Source of the DNA: a virus
Lineage: Duplodnaviria > Heunggongvirae > Uroviricota > Caudoviricetes
Virus record (IMG/VR): IMGVR_UViG_2706794697_000013
Strand: one strand, 5' to 3'
DNA length: 48,556 bases
Under the pieces are notes generated by a model, which had not been told where the DNA came from, made no database searches, and saw only the letters and a program-made list of their open reading frames with translations. This document shows positions 213 to 47,319 of this stretch, in pieces. The number at the start of each line of letters is the position of its first letter. The first letter of the stretch is position 1. The position numbers and the translations under genes were made by a program.

Positions 213-797
213 TTACTCCCTGACAGGGTTCGTAGGCCACTCAATATCAGGTGCAGTTGACGTATCAACACGGTTCAGCAATACCCGATACTTTTTCCAT
301 GCTTCCAGCAACGAGATTTCTTCCTCCGTTGCAATTTCCAGATCTGCAGCATCCTGAAGCGGCGCAATATGCTCACTGGCTACCTGCATCAGGTTGTTTT
401 TTGTTTCTTCCGCCTCCCGGATCCGGAACAGTTTTTCTGCTTCCGTATCCTTCACCCAGGCTGTGCCGTTCCACTTCTGAAACTCCCCTTCCGGCGATAA
501 CCAGGTAACATTTTCCGGTAACGGACCGAGTTCAGAAATAAATAACGCGTCGCCGGAAGCCACGTCATAAACCGTTTTACCCCGATGATCTTCAACGAGA
601 TGCCACGATGACTCATCACTGTTGAAAACAGCCACGAAGCCAGCCGGAATATCTGGCGGTGCAATATCGGTACTGTTTGCTGGCAGACCTGTATGAGGCG
701 GAATATATGCATCACCTTCACCAATAAATTCATTAGTTCCGGCCAGCAGATTATAAATTTTTATGGTCCGTGGTTGTTCACTCATTCTGAATGCCAT
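213..797 (-). CDS. tfa: Tail fibre assembly protein (lambda Tfa / TfaR-like)
   Basis: 194 aa ORF immediately after the stf stop (shared boundary at 797); sequence pattern as recalled for lambda Tfa. Confidence 0.85.
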
Positions 798-3757
798 TAT
801 GCAAGCCTCACAATATAGTTAAATGCGATGTTTTTGACGGTGTTTTCCGCGTTACCAGCAGCGTTAACGGTGATGGTGTGTCCATGTGAACCAATCGCAA
901 CGGAGTGCGTATGAGCACCAATACCGACAGTATGCGCGTGTGCACCTGCAGATGCTGCTGTGCCGGACAGTGAATGGCTATGATTACCATCTATACTGGT
1001 ATTCGCTAACCACCCCGTAGACATACCTACTGAGCCTTGTACACCCCAGGTATTTTGACCTGAGCTTGTATAACCATATTGATAAGTATCTTTAAAAACA
1101 CTGGGGTTAAATCGACGGCCATCTCTATGGCTGTGATTACCAGCTGCATTCGTGCTGCCACTTAAACTATGGGTATGCGCACCAGTGTTATTCGTGGATT
1201 TAGTGCCGTAATCAAACGACGATGTGGTTTTCGTCCCCAAATCCGTACTGGATGCGCTGGCGCTGTGGGTATGCGATTTAATGCCGTCCTGTTCCTGAGA
1301 CAATACGGCCCGACCACTGGCAGGTTTGCCCTTAATCGTCCAGCCACGCATATCAGGGATCACGCCTGACGGATAAGCCGCTGCAAGTTTCGGGTATGCA
1401 GATTTGTCAAAAGCCTGCCCCTGCATCAGGGCATAGCCAGACGGAACGGTATCTGATGGCCACGGGATTGGTGCGCCAGGCGGATAAAACTGCTCTGATG
1501 GCGTATAGAGTGAATAAACTGTACCGTCCGTTAACCCTTCCGGCTTATTAGCAGAATATGCTGGTGACGTATGAATCGTCACGCTGGCATTACTGGTATA
1601 ATCCCATTGAATATTTACACCAGTCGCATAATTTCCGATTGCAACGTAAATATCGTAAGTATCACCAGATGTATTAACCCAGGCAAAATTTGTAAACCCT
1701 GTCAATGTGCGCTGCCATAAAGCACCAGTAATCCCCTTCGGATTACCATTACCTGCACGTAAAACAAGTTCAGATATACCTGCCTGTTGAGGTGACCCCA
1801 CGTTAAATCCAGCGCCACCAATCAACGTAATTGAAACAACAGAACTCGCCTGTGGCATGGTTACCGTTGCTAATTTGAACCAACCAGCACCACCGCTGAA
1901 TGACATTGTTGTTGAGTTAAGCGTACCAATATCTTTCGGCGTCAGTGTTATATCCGCTGAAAGCGCCTTACCATTCACCTTACGGGCAGAAGGTACCCGA
2001 CCATTCGCATTGTCATTAGCTGCTTTCACTGCTTTCGGTGTCGCAGCAAGCGTTTCAGATGTGCTGTTGGTTGCACTACTGAGCTGGACAATTCCTTTTT
2101 GTGCTGTCGTAGCGTCCTGTGCGGTGTATTTCCCGTTAGCCAGGTCATACGCGGCCTTAACGGCTTTTGGCGTTGCCGCCTGTGACTCGGAAGTGCTGTT
2201 AGTCGCACTGCTGAGCTGAACTATCCCTTTCTGTGCTGTCGTTGCATCCTGTGCGGTGTATTTCCCGTTAGCCAGGTCATACGCGGCCTTAACGGCTTTT
2301 GGCGTTGCCGCCTGTGACTCGGAAGTGCTGTTGGTCGCACTGCTGAGCTGTACTATCCCCTTTTTCGTCGTGCTCGCATCCTCAAGCGCCACGGCGGATG
2401 CAATATCCTCTGCCCGTTTTGCTGCTGTCTCGGCGCGCGTTGCCGCGGATTCCGCCGTACTTTTGCTCTGTGCTGCCGCTGCCGCACTGCCAGCAGCCTC
2501 TGTCGCCTTCGTGGATGCCGTCGTGGCGCTGCCCCTCGCTGCTGACGCCTGTCTGGTCGCCTCATCTTTTGAAGCAGACGCAGATGATGCCGATGACGCC
2601 GCCGAACTGGCGGACGATGCGGCAGCCGTTTTTGAGGATTCTGCGCTGGTTTCCGACGCTTTCGCGTTCGTTTCGGATGTCTTCGCTGCGGAAGCAGACC
2701 TCGCTGCTGCGCTGGCCTGTTCAGTGGCTTCGCCAGCCTTCGTTGTGGCTGTTGAAGCGGATGATGCGGCGCTTTCTGCCGATTTTCCGGCGGCGGTGGC
2801 ACTGACTGCTGCCTCCTCTGCCTTAATGGACGCCTCACGGGCCGATGATGCAGCTGCTGTCTCAGAGTCTGCCGCAGCTGAGGCGCTCTGTTCCGCTGCC
2901 GTTTCAGAAGACTTAGCATTCGTCTCGGACGTTTTTGCCGCCTTCACGGAATTTCCTGCCGCCGTTGCCGAGGAGGCTGCACTGCTGGCGCTTGTGGAGG
3001 CGTTCGTTTCTGATGATTTTGCCGCCTCTTTGGAGGCCGCCGCATCTCTGGCTGAAGTGGCGGCTTCTGACGCTTTCGTTGTCGCAGTGGATGCAGAAGT
3101 GGCTGCTGATTTTTGTGACGCTGCAGCATTCGTTTCTGACGTTTTCGCCGCACCGGCACTGGTGGCCGCCGCGCTTTTTGAGGACTCTGCAGCGGCAGCA
3201 CTTTTTGATGCTTCAGTGGCCTTTGTTGATGCCGTTCCTGCGCTGGAAGACGCCTCCTGAGCCGAAGTCGCGGCCTGTCCGGCTGACGTGCTGGCTGCAC
3301 GCGCTGAGCCTGCAGCATCAGTCGCATGGGTTGCCGCCTCACGGGCAGATGTGCCGGCATCACTGGCTGACTTCTTCGCGGCTGCCGTGTTCTGTGCCAC
3401 CGCGGACGCGTTACGCGCCACCTCTTCCACCATCAGTTCAAAACGGCGCAGAGCCTCCGGACGGGCATCATCCTCCGTCATGGCACCGAGAAAATCATTC
3501 AGCGTACCGGGTCGGGAATCTTCATACACAGTGATGGTCCCGGCATGTGACGGCGGGAATCCTTCCACCAACAGAATAACGCTGTACTGACCGTACTCAA
3601 CGTCCATGCTGTAACGCCCGGCTTCATCCGGATTTTCTGAGGCCAGCGTGTTCACCACCACCGTGGTGCTGTTACGTTTTGCTTTCAGCTGGATTGTGCA
3701 GTTCTGTACCGGTTTTCCTGTGCCGTCTTTCAGTACACCTGAAATCTTTACTGCCAT
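797..3757 (-). CDS. stf: Side tail fibre protein (lambda Stf / StfR-like)
   Basis: N-terminus [20 protein letters not shown] as in lambda Stf (ORF track starts 2 codons earlier at a GTG); long Ala/Ser-rich shaft; C-terminal part differs from lambda. Confidence 0.85.
1990..2350. repeat. Tandem 132-bp repeat inside stf (44-aa fibre repeat, 2 full copies plus a diverged third)
   Basis: gcggtgtatttcccgttagccaggtcatacgcggccttaacggcttttggcgttgccgcctgtgactcggaagtgctgtt recurs at 2121 and 2253; protein repeat [44 protein letters not shown]. Confidence 0.8.
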
Positions 3758-3764
3758 ATTCACC

Positions 3765-3821: not shown

Positions 3822-4473
3822 TCAGAATTTATAACCGACACCCACGATGAAACCGTCAGTGCGCCAGTCGCCACTGCCGGAGCCTTCATAAGCAATATCA
3901 ATGGCCACGGATTCGGTCGGGTTAAACTGCACGCCAGCTCCCCACGCCAGAGACGTGTTGCTGTGGCGACCGTCATCACTTCCGGTCAGCACGTCGTGCG
4001 TTTTCCCCTTGTTGTCAGTTACGCGGAGATAATCCCCGGAGAAAGTCGACACACGGCTGTAAGCCACACCCGCCATCGCATACGCGCTGAACCATTCATT
4101 CACGCGCACAGACGGCCCCGCCATTACGCTGAACCAGCGGTTACGAACGGAATCTTCATGCCAGCGGGTATCGCTGTAACGGGTCAGCTGGCGATTCTTG
4201 TCTCCTGCATAGCTGAATGACGTCACCAGCCCCAGNNNNNNNNNNNNNNNNNNNNNNNNNNNNNNNNNNNNNNNNNNNNNNNNNNNNNNNNTCCGTAAAC
4301 TCATAACGGTATTTCACGTTAATCCCGTTCAGATCATCACTGCCGGGAACGTTGGTCCGGGCATGAAGATACCCCGCGCTCAGCGTGGACTGATGTTCAG
4401 ACGCCCATGCAGGCGCACCGGATACGGCCAGACAAATGGCTGCGGACAAAATTGCTGCACAAACTTTACGCAT
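3822..4473 (-). CDS. lom: Lom-like outer membrane protein (interrupted by an N-run at 4236-4291)
   Basis: N-terminus MRKVCAAILSAAICLAVSGAPAWASEHQSTLSAGYLHA and C-terminal beta-barrel sequence as recalled for lambda Lom; two ORF-track pieces are in frame across the N-run. Confidence 0.75.
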
Positions 4474-4495: not shown

Positions 4496-4521
4496 ATAAA
4501 AAAGGCGTCATTCCTGACGCC
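4496..4521 (-). terminator. Rho-independent terminator after J
   Basis: Minus strand GGCGUCA-ggaa-UGACGCC followed by UUUUUUAUU, then the lom RBS GAGAGG. Confidence 0.6.
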
Positions 4522-4543: not shown

Positions 4544-7500
4544 TCAACGAATACTGATGCCGGAAGCCGCTTTTTTGGTCACAATCACCGTACAGTCGGT
4601 GATATTGCCTGCCCCCTGATTGCCTTTCTGGAAAATCTTAAACTCCAGAGTGACGCTACCACCACCACTAGGCATATCAATAACTGCACTGTAACTACCG
4701 GGAATGGCCCCTTTAGTTTCTCTGGATGCGATTAATACGCCGTTTTTGCGAACTTCAAAACCATAACCCGTGTATCGCGTGCCTCCTGGGTTATTTCCGC
4801 TCCCCGGATCGTCATACGCTATACCGTTAAAAATAATGGGCGGAATAATAATCTGGCGGTCAAAGTTATGATCATCGCTGATGGTGACTGTAACCGTACC
4901 GTCTGGTGTTTCCGTGTTACCCCACGTACCGACTTTTTTCGGGAAGGCTTTTGATACAGCTTTAACGAAATCCCCTCTGACCTGGGTCGCCTCCAGCATG
5001 CCCTTAATCGTACAGTTCTGGTTAATCGTGACATTGTTGAGCGTTCCTGAGTTCGCATTCACACTACCACTGATATCCGCATTTTTAGCGGTCAGCTTTC
5101 CGTCTGATGTCAGGGAAAATACCGGAGGACTGCCACCGCTGGTAATGGCGGGGGCTGTCAGGCGCTTCAGGAACACGTCGTTCATGAATATCTGGTTGCC
5201 CTGCGCCACAAACATCGGCGTTTCATTCCCGTTTGCCGGGTCAATAAACGCGATACGATTGGCGGCAACCAGAAACTGGCTCAGCTTGCCTTCCTCCGTG
5301 TCCTCCATGCTGAGGCCAATACCCGCGACATAATGTTTGCCGTCTTTGGTCTGCTCAATTTTGACGCCCCACATCGCATTCCATTTATCGTTAGCGTCCT
5401 TCCACTCTTTCGAAAACTCATCCAGTCTGCTGGCGTTATCCTCCGTCAGATCAACTTTTTCCAGCAGCTCTTTACCGAGATGGGATTCGGTTATCTTGCC
5501 TTTGAAAAAATCCAGGTAACCTTCCGCATCATCGCTCGCCCGACCGACGGCCTCCACGAATGCCGATTTGCCAACGGTGTTCACACTGCGGATATAAAAG
5601 TAATAATCATGGCCCGGTTTGATATTGATACTGGCGGCTATCCAGTACAGCCCCGCGCCAAGGTAGCGGGCTGTGGTTTCAACCTGCCTGATATCGGTAA
5701 TCCGCGTTTCCGAGAACCAGAACTCAAACTGTACCGTCGGATCATAAACCGCAAGATGCGGCGTGGCAGTTATCTGAAAATAGCCCGGCGTCAGCTCAAT
5801 CCGCGACGGTGCTACCGGTGCGGCAATCCTGAACGATACCGACGCCGGATCGCCCTGCTGTCCCCAGGCATTTACCGCCCGGACTGTCAGCGTGTACCGT
5901 CCCAGCGCCAGTTGCGTGAAGCGGTATGTGGTTTCCGTCGTCCGGGCCGTGCTGACCAGCCGCTCACTGCCGTCATCCGCTGCCACGGTCAGGCGAAGCA
6001 TAAAGCTCACCCCCTTCACCACCTTCGGCGTGTCCCAGCGCGCCAGCACCTGATATTCCCCGCTGTCTGCGGTGACTTCGGCAGTCAGGTGCTGCACCGC
6101 TGGCGGCGTGACACCATTCACCGTGCCGCTCTGGTCGCCGTCAAAGTGCGCCCCGTTATCCACGATGGCTTCTTTTTCCGGTACATGCTGCACGGCAGTG
6201 ATGGCATACGTGCCGTCATCGTTCTCACGGATACTCACACAGCGGAACAGGCGCTGGCGCAACGTCGGCAGCTTCAGCCCCCACACGCTGTATTCAGCAA
6301 CGCCGTCAGGAACACGGCTCACTTTCACCTTCACGCCGTCGGTGACGGACTGAACCTCCACGCTGACCGGATTGCCACTTCCGTCAACCAGGCTTATCAG
6401 CATGGTACCGGAGGATGGCAGCGTGATTTCACGGTCGAGCGTCAGCGTCCGGGTCTGGCTGTTTACCGCCAGCACGCGCCCGCCGATGCTGATACCCGCA
6501 TAGTCATCATCACAGATTTCAATGACATCGCCCGGCACATGGCGAAGCCCTTCTGCGCCCACGCTGAAGTCCACGGTCTGCGTTTCCAGCAGTTCTGTTT
6601 TAATCAGCCACAGCCCGGCGCGGTGTGCCTGCCCCCGGCTGGTACAGCCAAAAGCATCCATCTTCGTGACGTTACGACCGTAACGGGCAATGGCCTGCGT
6701 ATCCTCCACAAGCTCTGTCGCCGTCTCCCAGCCGTTATCCGGGTCAATCCAGTTCACCTCAACGGCATTATGGCGGTCTTTCAGGGCGCTGAAGCTGTAG
6801 CGGAACGGCGCGCCATCATCCGGCATCACCACATTACTGCGGTTATAGGTCCACACCTTATCCGACGGTCGGTCCTGCACGAACGTCAGCGTCTGCCCGT
6901 TCCATACCGGCATACAGCGCATCGCCGAGCAGAAATCACTGAGCACATCCCACGCCTTGCGCTGTGTGGTCAGGTACGCATTACAGGTGATGCGCGGCTC
7001 CGTGCCGCCAAAGCCGTCCGGCACTGACTGGTCGCAGTACTGGCCGATGACATACAGCGCCCATTTGTCCACATCCGCCGCACCAAGACGTTTCCCCATG
7101 CCGTAGCGCGGGTGGGTCAGCATATCCCACAGACACCAGGCCATGTTGTTGCTGTATGCTGGTTTTAACGTTCCGTCCCAGATACCGCTGTATTGTCGCG
7201 TCTGCGGGTTATAGTTCGACGGCACCTGCAGAATGCGCCCGCGAAGATGATAATTACGACTCACCTGCTGGCTGCCGAACTGCTCCGAGTCCACCTGTAC
7301 GCCGACCAGTGCAGTGTTCGGGTAGCACTGTTTCACATCGATGATTTCGGTGTATGACGACCAGAGCGTTTTGTTCTGCAGCTGGTCTGTGGTGCTGTCC
7401 GGTGTCATCCTGCGCATCCGGATACTGAACGGGCGCGGAGGCAGGTTATCCACCACCACCGAGACCAGATACTGCGAGGTGGTTTTGCCCTTAATGGTGA

Positions 7501-7957
7501 TGTCTTTTTCCGTCACCCAGCCACCGTTACGCTGTATCTGAACCAGCAGGCGGACTTCCGACGGATTCCTGTCTCCCTTTGAGGTGGTTTCCACCAGTGC
7601 CTGTACACCGAAGGTAAAGCGCAGACGGTCGATGTTTGCCGACGTGATGGTCCGGGTGATCGGCGTGTCATATTTCACTTCCGTACCCAGCACCGTCTCG
7701 GAGCCGGAGGATTCAAACCCCTCCGGCGGTGACTGCTCCTGCTCACCTGCCCGGAACACCACCGTGACGCCGGAGATGTTGGTATTCCCCTCATTGTCCA
7801 GCACCGGCGTACTGTTCAGCAGCACGCTTTTTAATCCATCCACCGGACCTTCAACCGGCCCTTCACTGATGGCATCGATCACACTCAGCAGCTGCGTGGA
7901 CTTCAGGTTGTCCTTCGCTTCGCGCGGGGTATGCCCCTTACTGCTGCCTTTACCCAT
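4544..7957 (-). CDS. J: Tail tip host-specificity protein J (lambda J-like, divergent C-terminal receptor-binding region)
   Basis: 1137 aa; N-terminus [24 protein letters not shown] and most of the length follow lambda J as recalled; last ~150 aa differ. Confidence 0.9.
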
Positions 7958-8017
7958 TCCTCACGCTCCATAAACGACAAAACCGCCCGCAGGCGGTTTC
8001 TCATAAAACATTTTGCA

Positions 8018-8665
8018 TCAGCGACCAATCACCACAACCTGACCACCATCCCCTTCGTCTGCCGTGCTGATCTCCTGAGAAACCACACGTGACCCCACGC
8101 GCATTTCCCCGTACAGAACAGGCAGAACATTACCCTGGGCAACCATGTTATCCAGTGACGAGAAATACGTGTTCTGTTTGCCGTTATCTGTACTGGCTGC
8201 CGTGGGCGTCCTGGCTTTCGGTGCCAGCATCTGCGCCACACCACCCAGGATCATACTGGCCCCTGCTGCATACATACCCGATACAGCCGCGGCCCCCAGC
8301 CAGCCCACAGGGTTCCACCATGCCACCGCAATCAGCGCCGCACCCAGCACCGCCTGAAACACACCGCCACTTTTGGCACCCGCCAGACGCGGAACGATGT
8401 GGATCACGGCACCATTTGCCAGCGGTTCATTAAGACGGGCAGATAATTCATTTTCGCCTGCATCACGCCCGGCAATGCGCACCTGATACCAGCCGTCGCT
8501 CAGTTTCTGACGAAATGCCGGGAGCTGTGTGGCCAGTGCCCGGATGGCTTCGGCCCCCGTTTTCACACGAAGGTCGATGCGGCGGCCAAATCGCTGCAAA
8601 TCCCCGTAAAGGCAGATGCGTGCCATGCCCGGTGACGCCAGAGGGAGTGTGTGCGTCGCTGCCAT
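8018..8665 (-). CDS. Tail assembly protein I-like
   Basis: 215 aa ORF between J and K in lambda gene order; start overlaps the end of K. Confidence 0.7.
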   Translation of the reverse strand: MAATHTLPLASPGMARICLYGDLQRFGRRIDLRVKTGAEAIRALATQLPAFRQKLSDGWYQVRIAGRDAGENELSARLNEPLANGAVIHIVPRLAGAKSGGVFQAVLGAALIAVAWWNPVGWLGAAAVSGMYAAGASMILGGVAQMLAPKARTPTAASTDNGKQNTYFSSLDNMVAQGNVLPVLYGEMRVGSRVVSQEISTADEGDGGQVVVIGR

Positions 8666-9291
8666 TTGTCGGTGTACCTCTCTCGTTTACTCAGTTGTTC
8701 AGGAATATGGTGCAGCAGCTCGCCGTCACCACAGTAAATGGCGGCATGATTCGGCACCGATGAACCAAAACAGCACAGCAGCACATCGCCCGGCTGCGCC
8801 GTTGACAACGGCACCTGATACAGCCCTGTAGCCTCCAGATTATCCAGATAGAGATTCTGACCATTACGCCACCAGTCGTCCTCACGATGAAAATCTGGCA
8901 TCTCAATTCCCGCCAGATGGTAAGCGTCCCGGAACAGCGTGTAACAGTCCGTCACCCCGTGCTCAAAGCGCCGCCCGGTGAGATGCGGCACACAGCGGAA
9001 CTNNNNNNNNNNNNNNNNNNNNNNNNNNNNNNNNNNNNNNNNNNNNNNNNNNNNNNNNNNNNNNNNNNNNNNNNNNNNNNNNNNNNNNNNNNNNNNNNNN
9101 NNNNNNNNNNNNNNNNNNNNNNNNNNNNNNNNNNNNNNNNNNNNNNNNNNNNNNNNNNNNNNNNNNNNNNNNNNNNNNNNNNNNNNNNNNNNNNNNNNNN
9201 NNNNNNNNNNNNNNNNNNNNNNNNNNNNNNNNNNNNNNNNNNNNNNNNNNNNNNNNNNNNNNNNNNNNNNNNNNNNNNNNNNNNNNNGCAC
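8563..9291 (-). CDS. Tail assembly protein K-like (NlpC/P60-type); N-terminal part masked by N-run 9003-9287
   Basis: Unmasked C-terminal part (..VPNHAAIYCGDGELLHHIPEQLSKRERYTDKWQRR..) resembles lambda K as recalled; boundaries uncertain because of masking. Confidence 0.55.
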   Translation of the reverse strand: MXXXXXXXXXXXXXXXXXXXXXXXXXXXXXXXXXXXXXXXXXXXXXXXXXXXXXXXXXXXXXXXXXXXXXXXXXXXXXXXXXXXXXXXXXXXXXXXXFRCVPHLTGRRFEHGVTDCYTLFRDAYHLAGIEMPDFHREDDWWRNGQNLYLDNLEATGLYQVPLSTAQPGDVLLCCFGSSVPNHAAIYCGDGELLHHIPEQLSKRERYTDKWQRRTHSLWRHRAWHASAFTGICSDLAAASTFV

Positions 9292-32244: not shown

Positions 32245-32954
32245 TACGCAAACTCCAGTAGTTGTGCGGCCACATTTTCAACTTCCTCCTGAGAGGAGAA
32301 TTTACGGAACAGAATCCAGTTCCACAGCACATTCAGTACAGATTTATAAACCTGCTGAAACTCGACTTCGTCCATATTCGCAAAAGCGATGGATTTTGCC
32401 CGACGCCCACGGCTACCGTCCGGATAAATATGCTCGGTGTAAAATCCGGCCTGAATGGTTACCCACTCGCGGAAAGCCTCAAACGACTTTAGCAACGCCG
32501 TATCCCGGGTTCTACGAGTCGCAACGGTGTTAAGGTATTGCTCTGCGGCATCACTCAGGGCTGGCGTGTGTTCCCGACCAACTGATTCGCACAGGTAATC
32601 AACGAAACCAGACAGCAGTTCTCGTTCGCGAGGCGTGATCGCCCCACCGACCGGAGTCCAGTAATCGAATCCCAGTTGCNNNNNNNNNNNNNNNNNNNNN
32701 NNNNNNNNNNNNNNNNNNNNNNNNNNNNNNNNNNNNNNNNNNNNNNNNNNNNNNNNNNNNNNNNNNNNNNNNNNNNNNNNNNNNNNNNNNNNNNNNNNNN
32801 NNNNNNNNNNNNNNNNNNNNNNNNNNNNNNNNNNNNNNNNNNNNNNNNNNNNNNNNNNNNNNNNNNNNNNNNNNNNNNNNNNNNNNNNNNNNNNNNNNNN
32901 NNNNNNNNNNNNNNNNNNNNNNNNNNGGTGTAAAGCCCCACATAGCATGAACAA
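32244..32954 (-). CDS. Nin-region protein (DUF1367-like), N-terminal part masked by N-run 32680-32926
   Basis: Unmasked C-terminal ~145 aa in frame with the masked stretch; lies between replication genes and ybcO-like gene. Confidence 0.4.
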   Translation of the reverse strand: MFMLCGALHXXXXXXXXXXXXXXXXXXXXXXXXXXXXXXXXXXXXXXXXXXXXXXXXXXXXXXXXXXXXXXXXXXXXXXXXXXXXXXXXXXXQLGFDYWTPVGGAITPRERELLSGFVDYLCESVGREHTPALSDAAEQYLNTVATRRTRDTALLKSFEAFREWVTIQAGFYTEHIYPDGSRGRRAKSIAFANMDEVEFQQVYKSVLNVLWNWILFRKFSSQEEVENVAAQLLEFA

Positions 32955-33128
32955 ACACTACATATCAAATAGCTGGTACAAGGATAGAAATACGACACTT
33001 ATTATTAAAAACGATTAGATAAATTACATTTTAATGTTATGCAAAAGTTCTTTTTTATCATAACATTTCAATAAAAGCATTACAGATGCAATCATCCCGT
33101 CATCATCAATTATTTAAGGTGGTTAAAC

Positions 33129-33215
33129 ATGGAAAATAACAAGTTCGCACATCTCGCTCCTTTTTTATCCGTAATCCTTTTCGCTTGTTGTTTTATATGG
33201 GCATTATTTTTATAA
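33129..33215 (+). CDS. Small hydrophobic peptide (28 aa, candidate membrane peptide)
   Basis: AAGGTGG RBS 6 nt upstream of ATG; MENNKFAHLAPFLSVILFACCFIWALFL then TAA; sits in an AT-rich non-coding stretch. Confidence 0.3.
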   Translation: MENNKFAHLAPFLSVILFACCFIWALFL

Positions 33216-33606
33216 AGTAGCCACATGATAAGTTGCTGGAATCATATTTCCCACTCAAGTCATTAACATTTGATAAGATATATCTAAAAGGACGCCTTTA
33301 CATTATTTATGCGTATATAATTTATTTATATACACAGTAAAGGTATCCTGGGAAAATATTTATCGTTAAAAAATACATCATAAATAATTAAGCTGAAATT
33401 TCAGAACACAACTAATACACACAATAAGGTTCAGTAACAGTAATCTATGTGGACTACATCGAGATTTTTTGATTAAACTTTAATAACTTATTCCTAACAC
33501 ACAGAATGCATAAACTAAAAGTAAAACAAATAGTTATACGAAAAACAACCATATTTATTCTATCTTCTCCTCTAATCAACATATCAATTATGTGTTTCAT
33601 AACAGC

Positions 33607-33646
33607 TTGACATAACCCTCCAAAAGATGCATTTTTAATGCATGTT
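33607..33646 (+). promoter_or_regulatory. Candidate promoter with NsrR-type operator upstream of the yeaR-like gene
   Basis: TTGACA at 33607-33612; AAGATGCATTT-t-TAATGCATGTT at 33624-33646 matches the 11-1-11 NsrR inverted-repeat consensus (AAGATGCATTT n AAATGCATCTT) at 20 of 22 positions. Confidence 0.55.
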
Positions 33647-33661
33647 TTGGAGGAGGTGGTT

Positions 33662-34000
33662 ATGACACACAAGAGAATTCCTAAAGATTGGGTAATCAAA
33701 CGCTCAACTCCGTTCTTCACAAAAGAGAACGTACCTTCAGCGTTATTAACACATCATAATACAGCAGCAGGTGTTTTTGGGCAGTTGTGCGTAATGGAAG
33801 GCACTGTAACATATTATGGTTTTACTGATGAGAATGCTACTGAACCGGAGATAAAAGTAGTCATTAATGCTGGCGCTTTTGCAACAAGCCCACCACAATA
33901 CTGGCACCGTGTTGAACTAAGCGATGATGCTCAGTTTAATATTAACTTTTGGGTCGCTCCAGACTTTTCGGGCGAAAAAGTCTATAGCACCAAAAAATAG
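33662..34000 (+). CDS. YeaR-like DUF1971 protein
   Basis: GGAGGAGG RBS before ATG at 33662; ..RSTPFF..GV..L.VM.G.V.Y.G..DE...EP...VI.AG.FA..PP..WH..D..FNI.F.VAP.. follows K-12 YeaR as recalled. Confidence 0.65.
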   Translation: MTHKRIPKDWVIKRSTPFFTKENVPSALLTHHNTAAGVFGQLCVMEGTVTYYGFTDENATEPEIKVVINAGAFATSPPQYWHRVELSDDAQFNINFWVAPDFSGEKVYSTKK

Positions 34001-34029
34001 ATGATCATATTAAAAATGCTTTAACAGTC

Positions 34030-34067
34030 AGACCCGGCAGGGCTATCCCCGACGGGTCTCATTTTTG
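34030..34067 (+). terminator. Rho-independent terminator after the yeaR-like gene
   Basis: AGACCCG..CGGGTCT inverted repeat followed by CATTTTTG, 30 bp after the stop. Confidence 0.55.
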
Positions 34068-34620
34068 TAAATATATTGGTTCTACATTGACAGGAGACTT
34101 CAACCATAAGAAGTAATCTGAATACTTGAGCAATAAATTTACTTAAGATTAATGAGCGCACCTTGCCGGACAAAGATAAACCAAGGTAACACCTTTTTTC
34201 TAGCCAGTATGTAATCAATCAGAAAGCCGCTCCATAAGAACAACAGCAAGACAATAAATTGCCATTACAGCCGCAATAGCCAGCGCACATTTGAGAACCA
34301 GCACGACAACCCCCTGTATTAGACGCACACCAGTCCTGATAAATATGAGGCTGTCTCGTCAGTGATTCAATACAACTATTGGGTATAGTTTCTGTGATTT
34401 TATTCTGTAGAAATGGAACACAACAACCAGTCACCACCAGCACTTCCTTAAATGCTCTAAGTCAGAAACAAGCCAACATTTTAGTCCGCTTTGAGCGATC
34501 TGCAGACATTGCTAGCAGCCTTCTGTGTGAATTCTCAGGGAGCAGGTCGGCATAGCATCACGTTGAGGCTCTTACCCTACTTGTTCACACCAACCCTAAC
34601 TCCACAGACTGATTCATAAA

Positions 34621-35622
34621 TTAGTAATCTGCGTGTTTCGCACTTTTCAGAAATGCTTTCATATTTTCATTAGGTCGCTCAATTTCGAAGTTACTTCCAT
34701 ATAACTCTTGTAATTTTGGCCATAACTTACTTAATAACCCTCTCCTGCGATAAAATGGATGTATCCAAACGGTAGATAGGTACGGAGAATTTGCATTTGA
34801 ATTGTTTATTGTGACCAGCCCAACTAAACATTGTCGATAACCACTATTATCCATTGATTGTATTTCTTCGACGAATGGATACGCGATTACATCAGTCCAA
34901 CCATGATCGGTTGTATCCCATTGCATTCCGTCATGACATTCCTTCGACTGATAGCGGCGTAAAGCTACACACGCGAGCTTTTGCCAATCTGGAGAATTAA
35001 TTGTGATCTCTTCATCGTATGACGCGCCTATTGGAGCGGGTATTGGTCTGATTAATCCAGCATGGCATTCATCATAGAACTTCATGTTTCCCTCAGAAAC
35101 GTTGTGTACGTTGGGTTGCTCCATGTGTGCGCCATTCAAAAATAGCTCTGATAGTAGTGTATCTACACTGTAATCTTTATTGATTATTGTCGGCTTAGAG
35201 TTTTTCTTATTAAGGCCGCGAGTAACGATTTTTTGATCAATGTTAACAACATGGAATAATCCGTCGGGGAGGCTAGCGAACCACGATGGGGCATCGGACC
35301 AGAATAGCATGCCTTTTGTACTTCTTAAGAGTTTAATTAAGTTAATACAAGCTTCTTCACTAGTCTTGCCGTTGATGCGAAGTATGTTAGGACTAAAGTA
35401 ATATTCATCCATATCAGGGAATGCAGCTTCGCAAAACTCCTGTACATAATTTAGCACCTGGATTCTACAGAGATCATCATAGCTGGTAATAACTAAGGGG
35501 GTATCTTCATTACTATTATGATTATCAATAATGCAATCTATAGCGAGACTTACTGCTTTGCGTATCACTTCAGTTGAATCTAACGACTCTAAAAATTTTG
35601 TCTTTCGTGTGCGAATATCCAT
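34621..35622 (-). CDS. Hypothetical protein B (333 aa) with GNAT-like C-terminal motif; second gene of AT-rich cassette
   Basis: ATG at 35622, 15 nt after protein A stop; C-terminal ..LSTVWIHPFYRRRGLLSKLWPKLQELYG.. resembles GNAT motif A; AT-rich. Confidence 0.6.
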   Translation of the reverse strand: MDIRTRKTKFLESLDSTEVIRKAVSLAIDCIIDNHNSNEDTPLVITSYDDLCRIQVLNYVQEFCEAAFPDMDEYYFSPNILRINGKTSEEACINLIKLLRSTKGMLFWSDAPSWFASLPDGLFHVVNIDQKIVTRGLNKKNSKPTIINKDYSVDTLLSELFLNGAHMEQPNVHNVSEGNMKFYDECHAGLIRPIPAPIGASYDEEITINSPDWQKLACVALRRYQSKECHDGMQWDTTDHGWTDVIAYPFVEEIQSMDNSGYRQCLVGLVTINNSNANSPYLSTVWIHPFYRRRGLLSKLWPKLQELYGSNFEIERPNENMKAFLKSAKHADY

Positions 35623-35637
35623 GTATGACCTGCGCTA

Positions 35638-36660
35638 TTAAAATTCATGAATGAACGGTTTGTCATCTGGTTGCAAAATGGTGGTTTTATTCGTTGCTAC
35701 ATTTAAACTGTTGTAGAGCATAATTGCCAGGTTCGATGCATTTTCAATCAGCGTTTCAAGATCCTGGTCTGTAATCACTACGAGGTTCCCTTCTTTATCC
35801 TTTCCACCACGATGCACTAAGTGATTTCGATTGAGGGTTGCCAATTCAATAGCTTCTATCGGACAGTCTTTTTGTACTTTTATATCGAATGTAGCTTCAT
35901 AGCGGTCGATTACCTTTTTAGTGCTATGCCAGCTTGCACTGATCAAGTGTTCCTTGATTGACCTGATTAGCTCTCCCCTAATTTTCTCGATGGGTTCACC
36001 CTTGAAAGGCAACGCAGCAATATCTTTGCTTACTTTAAATTCAGTCTTACCTTTTTCTATACAATTGGCTATGTAGACATCATCTTTCTCTATAGAATTA
36101 ATGAATAGCTCAACATAAAGCGTTTCCAAAGCTGTAATAACATTCGTGTAGAGCAAACTAAGCAAGTGGTTTTTTTGCTGTTGTTCAGTTTTATCTTTTG
36201 CAAGTTTTTTTATTTTATCGATATTATCAATGAATTTTAAATACGGATTACCGGAAGACGTTACAGCGTCGTAGATATCATCATCGTACCAATCATCTAT
36301 ATTATTTGAGTTTCCAGACCAGTCAAAACATTGTGTTTGTAATTCATCTACTAATTCCTCAATATACTCAGATTTAACATATTGACCGAAGATGGATTGT
36401 AGTTCTTCGCTCGCATCATACGGCCCGCCATATATGTAAGCATAGCCACCTTCTCTACTTTCATACGGACAAGCATTTGCCGGATCTTCAAAGTTTTCAA
36501 AGAACCAGTTTTTCATTACTTCGAGTTGATCTTTTTTGCTTATGTATTTTAAAGATTTTAGTGGAACTTTCTTTCCATTAACCTCGAAAACAATTTTCAC
36601 GATGTAACGCTCCCTTGTATCAATTGCGCAACTATTATACCACAGCGAAATACAGGGCAT
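35638..36660 (-). CDS. Hypothetical protein A (340 aa) with C-terminal HEPN-type Rx4H motif; first gene of AT-rich cassette
   Basis: GGAGG RBS 6 nt upstream of ATG at 36660 (ORF track extends 23 codons further); C-terminal ..ELATLNRNHLVHRGG.. fits R-x4-H; about 36 percent GC by hand count. Confidence 0.6.
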   Translation of the reverse strand: MPCISLWYNSCAIDTRERYIVKIVFEVNGKKVPLKSLKYISKKDQLEVMKNWFFENFEDPANACPYESREGGYAYIYGGPYDASEELQSIFGQYVKSEYIEELVDELQTQCFDWSGNSNNIDDWYDDDIYDAVTSSGNPYLKFIDNIDKIKKLAKDKTEQQQKNHLLSLLYTNVITALETLYVELFINSIEKDDVYIANCIEKGKTEFKVSKDIAALPFKGEPIEKIRGELIRSIKEHLISASWHSTKKVIDRYEATFDIKVQKDCPIEAIELATLNRNHLVHRGGKDKEGNLVVITDQDLETLIENASNLAIMLYNSLNVATNKTTILQPDDKPFIHEF

Positions 36661-36798
36661 AACCTGCCTCCTTAAACTAACATACCATGAGCCAGCAATG
36701 TCCGCTATTGGCACAAAGCGGACAACCACGCTAGCTCTCCCCTGTGCCAGAAAAATGTCAATTTACATATGAACTAATGCTCTTTGATCTAGTAACGT

Positions 36799-37215
36799 CT
36801 ATAAATACCGAAGATTTCCTTGATAAAATGCCAGTACACGTTTCATAACTTCACTCTTCCGGCACTCGCGACAGATTATGTTCTGACGCCTGTCATAGCG
36901 GCGTATTTCTCCGTCTGGTAATGACCAGATAAGGTCAGGATCAACCACAACCGTTTTTTTCACCTTTGCCCTGGATAGTTTTTTGCGGGCGTTTTTCCAA
37001 TCCTTACGAGCCTGTTCAGACGGGAATAACCCATAGCCAGAGTTGTATACATCGCCACTGGCAACCAACTCTCTGGCAAGAATGCTCATCAGATATCTTG
37101 TCGCACCTGTCTTGGCCTCCAGTTGCCTTAACGTCTCGCGCCCACTCTGGCGTACCAACTCAACAACCTGCTCCTTAATTTTTTCACGCTCTTCCTGTGT
37201 AAAAACTTTTGCCAT
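36799..37215 (-). CDS. Hypothetical protein (138 aa)
   Basis: ATG at 37215 directly after the upstream stop; basic C-terminal half with CRECRK; family not recognised. Confidence 0.45.
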   Translation of the reverse strand: MAKVFTQEEREKIKEQVVELVRQSGRETLRQLEAKTGATRYLMSILARELVASGDVYNSGYGLFPSEQARKDWKNARKKLSRAKVKKTVVVDPDLIWSLPDGEIRRYDRRQNIICRECRKSEVMKRVLAFYQGNLRYL

Positions 37216-45771: not shown

Positions 45772-46573
45772 GCAACCACCAATCGCAAAAGCCGATCTGC
45801 AAAAAACTCAGGGAAACCGTGCACCAGCAGCAATTAAAAATAACGACGTGATTAGTTTTATTAACCAGCCATCAATGAAAGAGCAACTGGCAGCAGCTCT
45901 TCCACGCCATATGACGGCTGAACGTATGATCCGTATCGCCACCACAGAAATTCGTAAAGTTCCGGCGTTAGGAAACTGTGACACTATGAGTTTTGTCAGT
46001 GCAATCGTACAGTGTTCACAGCTCGGACTTGAGCCCGGTAGCGCCCTCGGTCATGCATATTTACTGCCTTTTGGTAATAAAAACGAAAAGAGCGGTAAAA
46101 AAAACGTTCAGCTAATCATTGGCTATCGCGGCATGATTGATCTGGCTCGCCGTTCAGGTCAAATCGCCAGCCTGTCAGCCCGTGTTGTCCGTGAAGGTGA
46201 CGAGTTTAATTTCGAATTTGGCCTTGATGAAAAGTTAATACACCGCCCAGGAGAAAACGAAGATGCCCCTGTTACCCACGTCTATGCTGTCGCAAGACTG
46301 AAAGACGGAGGTACTCAGTTTGAAGTTATGACGCGCAAACAGATTGAGCTGGTGCGCAGCCAGAGTAAAGCTGGTAATAACGGGCCGTGGGTAACTCACT
46401 GGGAAGAAATGGCAAAGAAAACGGCTATTCGTCGCCTGTTCAAATATCTGCCCGTATCAATTGAGATCCAGCGTGCAGTATCAATGGATGAAAAGGAACC
46501 ACTGACAATCGATCCTGCAGATTCCTCTGTATTAACCGGGGAATACAGTGTAATCGATAATTCAGAGGAATAA
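45764..46573 (+). CDS. recT: Single-strand annealing recombinase RecT
   Basis: 269 aa from [23 protein letters not shown]..; start overlaps recE stop; ORF track extends upstream in frame. Confidence 0.95.
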
Positions 46574-46628
46574 TTCAGCCTGGCGGTGTAATGCACCGCC
46601 AACTTGAAATATTTTTATGAGAAAAATT

Positions 46629-46823
46629 ATGAGATATGACAATGTTAAACCATGTCCATTTTGTGGTTGTCCATCAGTAACGGTGAAAGCCATTTCAGGA
46701 TATTACCGAGCGAAGTGTAACGGATGCGAATCCCGAACCGGTTATGGTGGAAGTGAAAAAGAAGCACTCGAACGATGAAATAAACGAACCACTGGAAATA
46801 ATAATGGAGGTGTTCATGTATAA
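46629..46823 (+). CDS. ralR: Restriction alleviation protein RalR (Lar)
   Basis: 64 aa MRYDNVKPCPFCGCPSVTVKAISGYYRAKCNGCESRTGYGGSEKEALERWNKR.. read from DNA. Confidence 0.8.
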
Positions 46824-47004
46824 AATTACCGCCACTATTGAAAAGGAAGGTGGCACTCCTACTAACTGGACAAGATATTCAAAATCTAAACTAACGAAAT
46901 CAGAATGCGAAAAAATGCTCTCAGGTAAAAAAGAAGCAGGCGTTTCCAGAGAGCAGAAAGTAAAACTGATAAATTTTAATTGCGAGAAACTTCAGTCCTC
47001 GTGA
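46816..47004 (+). CDS. ydaC: YdaC
   Basis: 62 aa from MYKITATIEKEGGTPTNWTRYSKSKLTKSECEKM..; ATG overlaps ralR stop. Confidence 0.6.
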   Translation: MYKITATIEKEGGTPTNWTRYSKSKLTKSECEKMLSGKKEAGVSREQKVKLINFNCEKLQSS

Positions 47005-47103
47005 ATTGCATTGTATTCAAATTAAAACTTCATAGCTGATTATTAATAATCAACATCGGGCGTCAATTTAAGTCTAACATTGGCGCCTGCCAGAGGTGAT
47101 GCG

Positions 47104-47319
47104 ATGGCACAAGTAATCTTTAATGAAGAGTGGATGGTTGAATACGGCCTGATGCTTCGCACTGGTCTGGGGGCCAGACAAATTGAAGCATACCGCCAGA
47201 ACTGTTGGGTGGAAGGCTTCCACTTCAAACGAGTATCTCCTTTAGGGAAGCCAGACAGTAAGCGAGGGATTATCTGGTATAACTATCCAAAGATAAATCA
47301 GTTTATCAAAGACTCATGA
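47104..47319 (+). CDS. xisR: Excisionase
   Basis: 71 aa [71 protein letters not shown], immediately upstream of int. Confidence 0.85.

Follow-up and report, generated by a model that had tools for sequence, protein, structure and literature searches.

What sets the choice of receptor in phage lambda and its relatives? Host specificity is determined by the C-terminus of gpJ (PMC3509688, PMC11101478), and when the phage 434 gene takes the place of lambda J the phage binds OmpC, which serves 434 as receptor (PMC3509688, citing Fuerst & Bingham 1978; PMC11101478). Feiss et al. 2022 sequenced 434 and lambda h434 imm21, the carrier of the genetically defined h434 host-range allele (PMC9119081). In the lambda structure an Ig-like domain is present as a trimer and inserts its four bottom loops into the LamB trimer; on binding, the bottoms of the domains move apart, the fibre twists and the tail tip opens, and point mutations in lambda J can extend receptor use to OmpF (PMC11101478). 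Brodel et al. 2024 took residue 964 of lambda J as the natural junction, joined gpJ C-termini of natural origin to it and so retargeted the particles to OmpC; the A8 and 1A2 gpJ chimeras both use OmpC and accept different variants of it (PMC11338833). Phage phi330 has also been reported to be OmpC-dependent (PMC12502783). Here we analyse gene J in a 48,556-nucleotide virus record, IMGVR_UViG_2706794697_000013, referred to below as the window, for which a preliminary description had proposed a lambda-like J with a divergent receptor-binding end.

Results

Prophage context and tail-tip genes

As a whole the window represents a Rac-family prophage of full length, whose tail-tip module resembles that of lambda. 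Collinearity with E. coli NCTC9082 extends from a point just past sitD to the end of intR, adjoining ttcA; besides a head module with a P22-like capsid and a DUF4055 protein, the prophage has trkG, recE/recT, kilR and sieB. Three runs of masked N (4236-4291, 9003-9287 and 32680-32926) interrupt the sequence, one of them in lom and one in the K/I region, and at these two places they conceal whether each of the tail genes is intact. An unrelated cargo slot at 33.6-36.7 kb of the window gave one clear hit, to DUF1971, in PADLOC and Pfam scans, and its two large ORFs had only sub-threshold hits in the same scans.

J sits in a tail-tip gene cluster, with a homologue of I upstream (Pfam Lambda_tail_I) and lom, stf and tfa downstream. 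The order J-lom-stf-tfa is that of lambda, and the annotated orthologous map of NCTC9082 likewise follows the tail-tip order M-L-K-I-J-lom-stf-tfa. The features, in window coordinates, are as follows.

213-797, minus strand: tfa, tail fibre assembly chaperone, 194 aa, 94% identical to lambda orf-194, Pfam Caudo_TAP
797-3763, minus strand: stf, side tail fibre, a 988-aa ORF from a GTG, with Pfam phage_tail_N, three Phage_fiber_2 repeats and Collar
989-1132, minus strand: divergent patch of Stf, about 50 residues (aa ~878-925) between His-x-His repeats, located by block identity
3822-4473, minus strand: lom, Ail/Lom outer-membrane protein gene, located from sequence and translation, broken by the 56 masked N at 4236-4291
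4504-4521, minus strand: G+C-rich hairpin and T-run just past the J stop codon, located by minus-strand reading and a hairpin scan
4544-7957, minus strand: J, tip attachment protein or central tail fibre, an intact ORF of 1137 aa plus stop, from the ORF list and its translation
4547-5035, minus strand: 434-type receptor-binding region of J, aa 975-1137, assigned from identity to 434 J, Pfam Ig_GpJ_C and fold matches
4958-5048, minus strand: module boundary at which DNA identity to lambda collapses, located in 30-nt identity bins
5036-7957, minus strand: lambda-like J body, aa 1-974, with hub domains, FNIII/Ig domains, helical shaft and beta-prism fibre

The hairpin that follows J reads GGCGTCAGGAATGACGCC then TTTTTTATT on the minus strand, and the scan gave the same hairpin on the plus strand. 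Hairpin and T-run are likely to be an intrinsic terminator between J and lom, and phage 434 has a terminator annotated at the equivalent place after J. The lom orthologue is annotated Ail/Lom in both NCTC9082 and 434.

The J ORF runs uninterrupted for 3414 nt, and the divergent region is its 3' end. Six Pfam models match it, all above their cut-offs and in the expected order: FNIII-A_GpJ, Phage-tail_3, Ig_J, Ig_J_second, Phage_Tail_Tip and Ig_GpJ_C. The gpJ architecture is complete, with an N-terminal FNIII-A domain, the hub, two Ig/FNIII domains, the tail-tip fibre and a C-terminal Ig receptor-binding domain; the names used for the domains of the body follow Pfam and the lambda tail structure paper (PMC11101478). 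Ig_GpJ_C (PF12421), which Pfam describes as 'Tip attachment protein J, C-terminal receptor binding domain', matches aa 1001-1136 (window 4550-4957) with 88 bits against a cut-off of 26.2, and the match spans profile positions 1-134 of 135.

A sharp boundary between a lambda-like body and a divergent end

Comparison with lambda J (NP_040600, from NC_001416) divides the protein in two. The body, aa 1-974, is 96.4% identical to lambda J at the amino acid level, as expected from the preliminary description, in which most of J was lambda-like. The region from aa 975 to 1137 is 39.3% identical with three indels (36.6% over aa 985-1137), and the whole protein is 88% identical. That the last ~150 residues differ from the LamB-binding domain of lambda was therefore correctly seen, and the peptides quoted for this end are present in the translation; high identity to lambda J aa ~975-1132, the LamB-binding allele, which would have spoken against the proposal, is not found. 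The interval originally given for the divergence, 4544-5000 (aa 986-1137), lies within the divergent part, but the divergence begins about 10 codons further upstream, near window position 5035.

At the DNA level the transition is abrupt. Identity to lambda J in 150-nt bins is 0.90-0.99 through gene nucleotide 2850 and is then 0.77, 0.53, 0.50 and 0.63; the 30-nt bins across gene nucleotides 2851-3030 give 0.93, 0.93, 0.67, 0.80, 0.50 and 0.37. Identity thus collapses at gene nucleotides ~2910-3000 (window ~4958-5048), from ~95% to ~50% within ~60-90 nt, and the final block common to the two proteins stops around GTL(N/S)NVTI. On these sequence comparisons, the step from 96% to 39% within one ORF is a sharp module boundary and not noise.

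The divergent end is the phage 434 allele

A megablast search of phage records with the last 657 nt of J gave 110 hits, in which 434 has 98.3% and lambda h434 imm21 98.2% DNA identity. The body is 97.6% identical to 434 J, and 160 of the 163 residues from aa 975 to 1137 are the same as in 434 J (98.2%, no gaps), with 97.5% identity over this region to the h434 allele of lambda h434 imm21. The three replacements, written as window residue to 434 residue, are I1108V, Q1110H and G1115R, all close to the C-terminus and within or next to a strand-loop region. The 434-versus-lambda and window-versus-lambda profiles drop in the same 150-nt bin and with the same values (0.77, 0.53, 0.49-0.50, 0.63). 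Gapless near-identity to 434 J and h434, together with the same junction with a lambda-like body, identify the window domain as the 434 allele.

When the 163-aa region was compared with all phage records by tblastn, the identities were bimodal: 74 records were at least 90% identical, 169 were below 60%, and none fell between. The upper group includes 434, lambda h434 imm21, mEp460, phage cdtI, several ECOR-derived 'PhiR' phages and many Stx1 and Stx2 phages; ASU11, Stx2_EH2201 and mEp460_ev081 each carry a one-residue variant of the window domain (99.4% identity). The lower group includes lambda, HK630, VT1-Sakai, BP-4795 and phi330; the J alleles of the last three belong to the same Ig_GpJ_C family and are 38-46% identical to the window domain. 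A distribution of this kind fits discrete, exchangeable alleles of the J receptor-binding domain, of which, as judged from the alignments, the window carries the 434 allele. A comparison with HK97, phi80 and Stx-phage J proteins had been proposed for this end. The J proteins of HK97 and phi80 are annotated in their own records as similar to lambda J, and BLASTP of the C-terminal 201 aa of the window against them gave no significant similarity (E 0.27 and 2.1, respectively).

Homology and predicted fold of the receptor-binding domain

Searched alone against the PDB, the divergent 153 aa gave 9wca ('A8 gpJ 713') as the best match among solved structures (E 8e-27), and lambda gpJ in 8xcj and 8iyk matched with E ~1e-18. 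We aligned the C-terminal 201 aa of the window with 19 homologues from a large protein collection, and the same alignment was the basis of an AlphaFold model. The allele types in it share the invariant motifs FP, DDxxFDRQ, NG and IDMPxGxG, and the stretches between these motifs vary in length and sequence. The model, a monomer, is mostly beta and has a pLDDT of 77, which is moderate confidence. Its top four Foldseek matches are 8xcj (the lambda central fibre, open, with LamB), 8xck (the same fibre, closed), 9wca (A8 gpJ, closed) and 9wcb (A8 gpJ, open and OmpC-bound), with E-values of 7e-17 to 7e-15 and TM-scores of 0.62-0.63; the fifth-ranked match has an E-value of 2e-4. The window domain is accordingly predicted to be a beta-sandwich like the solved gpJ receptor-binding domains.

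We also asked if the residues still shared with lambda cluster in the predicted beta-strands. This idea was rejected: 31 of 88 strand residues (35%) are identical to lambda, as compared with 25 of 65 (38%) elsewhere. Because lambda identity is no higher in the strands, the picture of a conserved core with variable loops derives solely from the multi-allele alignment.

Prevalence in E. coli genomes

The C-terminal 487 nt of each type were searched against 5426 complete E. coli genomes. The 434-type end has a match in 2113 of them (39%); 624 records match at 99% identity or more, and one, strain B1_2, is exact. The lambda-type end has a match in 98 of the 5426, all at 99% or more, and the five matches listed are laboratory K-12, B, C41/C43(DE3) and BL21-Gold(DE3) strains. 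Among these genomes the form common in nature is the 434-type end, and the LamB-type end of lambda hardly occurs outside laboratory strains; for this reason a J that differs from lambda is the expected state for a wild prophage. The divergent end is already known, as the classical and very common 434 (h434) allele, and it is structurally understood for related alleles.

The preliminary description did not recognise the J end as this allele.

Side tail fibre and its chaperone

The Stf reading frame opens with a GTG; the true start may be an ATG two codons downstream (near window 3757), by analogy with lambda orf-401, which begins MAVKISG. The N-terminal 352 aa are 80% identical to orf-401, in agreement with the proposed match of the Stf N-terminus to lambda. 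The accompanying suggestion that the Stf C-terminus (797-1500) differs from lambda holds for a short stretch only. The C-terminal 229 aa (aa 760-988) are 72% identical overall to lambda orf-314, and in 20-aa blocks identity is 0.8-1.0 except at aa ~880-919 (0.35 and 0.15), with two short repeat indels. The patch of ~50 aa is the sole strongly divergent part of the Stf C-terminus; the remainder is mostly 80-100% identical to lambda, and Tfa, as listed above, is 94% identical to its lambda counterpart. The larger difference from lambda is in the middle of Stf: the orf-401 match ends near aa 354, a second match runs to ~aa 500, and the orf-314 match starts at aa 760. The middle holds the three Phage_fiber_2 repeats, and its DNA is rare among phage records, none of which covers 80% of the fragment; the best, JL22, has 91% identity over 66%.

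Discussion

The J protein of this prophage is in all probability (about 0.88) a natural mosaic in which a lambda-like body, aa 1-974, is joined to the receptor-binding allele of phage 434, aa 975-1137, with OmpC rather than LamB as its most likely receptor. The choice of OmpC over LamB follows from the 98% identity of the domain to the h434 allele, and to this extent the suggestion that the divergent end implies a different outer-membrane receptor gains support from the sequence relationship (98.2% to 434 J, 97.5% to h434) and from the literature on OmpC. The joint between body and receptor-binding domain lies at the usual module junction. If the window protein behaves as lambda gpJ does with LamB and A8 gpJ with OmpC, the central tail fibre would end distally in three copies of the Ig-like beta-sandwich, the bottom loops of the trimer would insert into the trimeric porin, and binding would be transmitted up the fibre so that the tail tip opens.

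Could the C-terminus instead have diverged from the lambda type in situ, by accelerated point substitution under diversifying selection and with no exchanged cassette? The two domains are homologous, share conserved motifs and so descend from one ancestor, and diversifying selection classically acts on receptor-binding domains. However, DNA identity falls from ~95% to ~50% inside 60-90 nt, the 434-versus-lambda profile steps at the same place, 434-type sequence (93-99%) is joined to J in many phages including Stx phages, mEp460 and cdtI, and no record falls between 60% and 90% identity. Because of the abrupt DNA step and the two-peaked distribution we rejected in-situ divergence in favour of cassette exchange, and we regard it as extremely unlikely. 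Nor is it probable that a 434-type domain serves here for another receptor, such as OmpF or a different porin, or for non-K-12 OmpC alleles exclusively, by way of the three substitutions. The differences from 434 at aa 1108, 1110 and 1115, the extension of lambda J to OmpF by point mutation (PMC11101478) and the discrimination among OmpC alleles by OmpC-using gpJ chimeras (PMC11338833) all speak for such a shift; against it stand the 98% identity to an experimentally defined allele and the wide occurrence in phages and prophages of one-residue variants (ASU11, Stx2_EH2201 and mEp460_ev081, 99.4%), with a 100% DNA match in E. coli B1_2, and nothing points to a different porin. This reading is very improbable.

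It is unlikely that J is an inert relic of a defective prophage, with a receptor specificity that has no present function. Defects are frequent in Rac-family prophages, the orthologues of gpJ, recT and intR in NCTC9082, the closest complete genome, are annotated as frameshifted, and the three masked N runs hide parts of the window prophage. The window J, on the other hand, is a full-length, uninterrupted ORF with exactly as many residues as in 434, stf and tfa next to it have intact ORFs, and the window spans a complete head, tail, lysis, replication and integrase set that is collinear with related phage records. J is probably functional in this prophage.

Mosaic J and OmpC use being the preferred interpretation, how finely can host range be specified? 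Since OmpC is polymorphic, and A8 and 1A2 differ in the alleles they accept, host range within the OmpC users is not readable from sequence. I1108, Q1110 and G1115 might tune the accepted OmpC alleles, and separately the Stf tip patch might alter a secondary specificity, which would give a host-range combination distinct from that of 434; we think this improbable, and the combination, if true, would still be allelic fine-tuning inside a known system. The supplements of Brodel et al. 2024 were searched for window peptides, with 1A2 in mind as a possible 434-type allele, and contained no occurrence, and the literature searched on the ECOR 'PhiR' phages, which carry the same allele, contained nothing specific about their receptors.

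The J host-range swap between lambda and 434, with its LamB-type and OmpC-type C-termini, is textbook phage genetics. It has since been put to use in engineering, and structures of two related alleles have been solved; the value of the present case as a discovery is small. A suitable annotation for the window J is tip attachment protein of the 434 type, probably OmpC-dependent.

Among the described systems, lambda gpJ (NP_040600; structures 8IYK, 8XCJ and 8XCK) shares with the window J the body, the domain architecture, a homologous receptor-binding domain and the predicted fold, but it binds LamB, and its receptor-binding region is only 39% identical with three indels. The A8 gpJ chimera (PDB 9WCA; 9WCB with OmpC G17 of E. 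coli EDL933) has the same fold and uses OmpC (Brodel et al. 2024, PMC11338833), yet it is a different allele, with 52% and 47% identity over the Foldseek fragments aligned to 9wca and 9wcb, and with loop lengths that differ in the alignment. The orthologous gpJ of NCTC9082 is annotated as frameshifted, unlike the intact window gene. The closest counterpart is 434 J (OL657226, UMO75286.1), which also has 1137 aa and is 97.7% identical overall without gaps, with 26 substitutions in total, three of them within the receptor-binding region. The two phages also share the gene order J-terminator-lom-stf-tfa. They differ in their surroundings: the window J belongs to a Rac-family prophage whose capsid module is P22-like and not to a 434- or lambda-type genome, and the side tail fibre has 988 aa in the window as compared with 437 aa in 434.

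Identity and make-up of the prophage

The window (1-48556) is a complete Rac-family prophage, whose left limit lies just past sitD and whose right limit is the end of intR, adjoining ttcA. Its gene order is collinear with that of E. coli NCTC9082, the closest complete genome, and its composition is mosaic, a P22-like capsid/DUF4055 head module being joined to a lambda-like tail-tip module; trkG, recET, kilR and sieB are also present. Among phage records, the left half of the window is best matched by SPF_0923 (ON032529.1), with 97.9% identity and 94% coverage. It was deposited as a Salmonella phage. Because it also contains trkG and the flanking transporter genes sitABCD, the SPF_0923 record seems to represent a prophage region, either excised or predicted, together with some host flank.

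Three stretches of the window are masked:

4236-4291, N run of 56 bases, within lom
9003-9287, N run of 285 bases, tail K/I region
32680-32926, N run of 247 bases

The lom reading frame is broken in the record by the first of these runs, and, with the sequence of the lom and tail K/I genes partly masked by N, their intactness is not readable from the record.

A non-collinear block, possibly defence cargo

Only one large block, at 32927-36820, lacks collinearity with NCTC9082, and in the window it includes these ORFs:

33638-34000, plus strand, DUF1971 ORF
34621-35622, minus strand, ORF of 333 aa, sub-threshold GNAT match
35638-36729, minus strand, ORF of 363 aa, sub-threshold HEPN/RES N-terminal match

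The two minus-strand ORFs adjoin each other, and PADLOC returned no match for either. At the matching position NCTC9082 carries the IteAS anti-phage system, whereas the window has other ORFs there, and the block may represent alternative defence cargo at a prophage hotspot.

The J protein and the side tail fibre

The 434-type C-terminus, which is the type found in the J protein of the window, is present in 2113 of 5426 complete E. coli genomes. The lambda LamB-type C-terminus is found in 98 of the 5426, every match having at least 99% identity, and the five matches listed are all laboratory strains. J is 1137 aa in the window, compared with 1132 aa in SPF_0923. It is intact in the window, unlike in NCTC9082 (NZ_LR134080.1), where three orthologues are annotated as frameshifted pseudogenes:

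5054-8468, gpJ
46313-47123, recT
47871-49105, intR

A further tail feature is the side tail fibre:

797-3763, stf, 988 aa, notable parts at aa 459-590 and aa 878-925

The fibre contains three tandem units of ~44 aa (three matches to Pfam Phage_fiber_2), and phage records offer few close matches to the middle third of the protein, the best being JL22 at 91%. The lambda stf frames orf-401 and orf-314, even when summed, are shorter than the 988-aa protein, and a patch of ~50 aa, flanked by His-x-His repeats, has just 15-35% identity to lambda.
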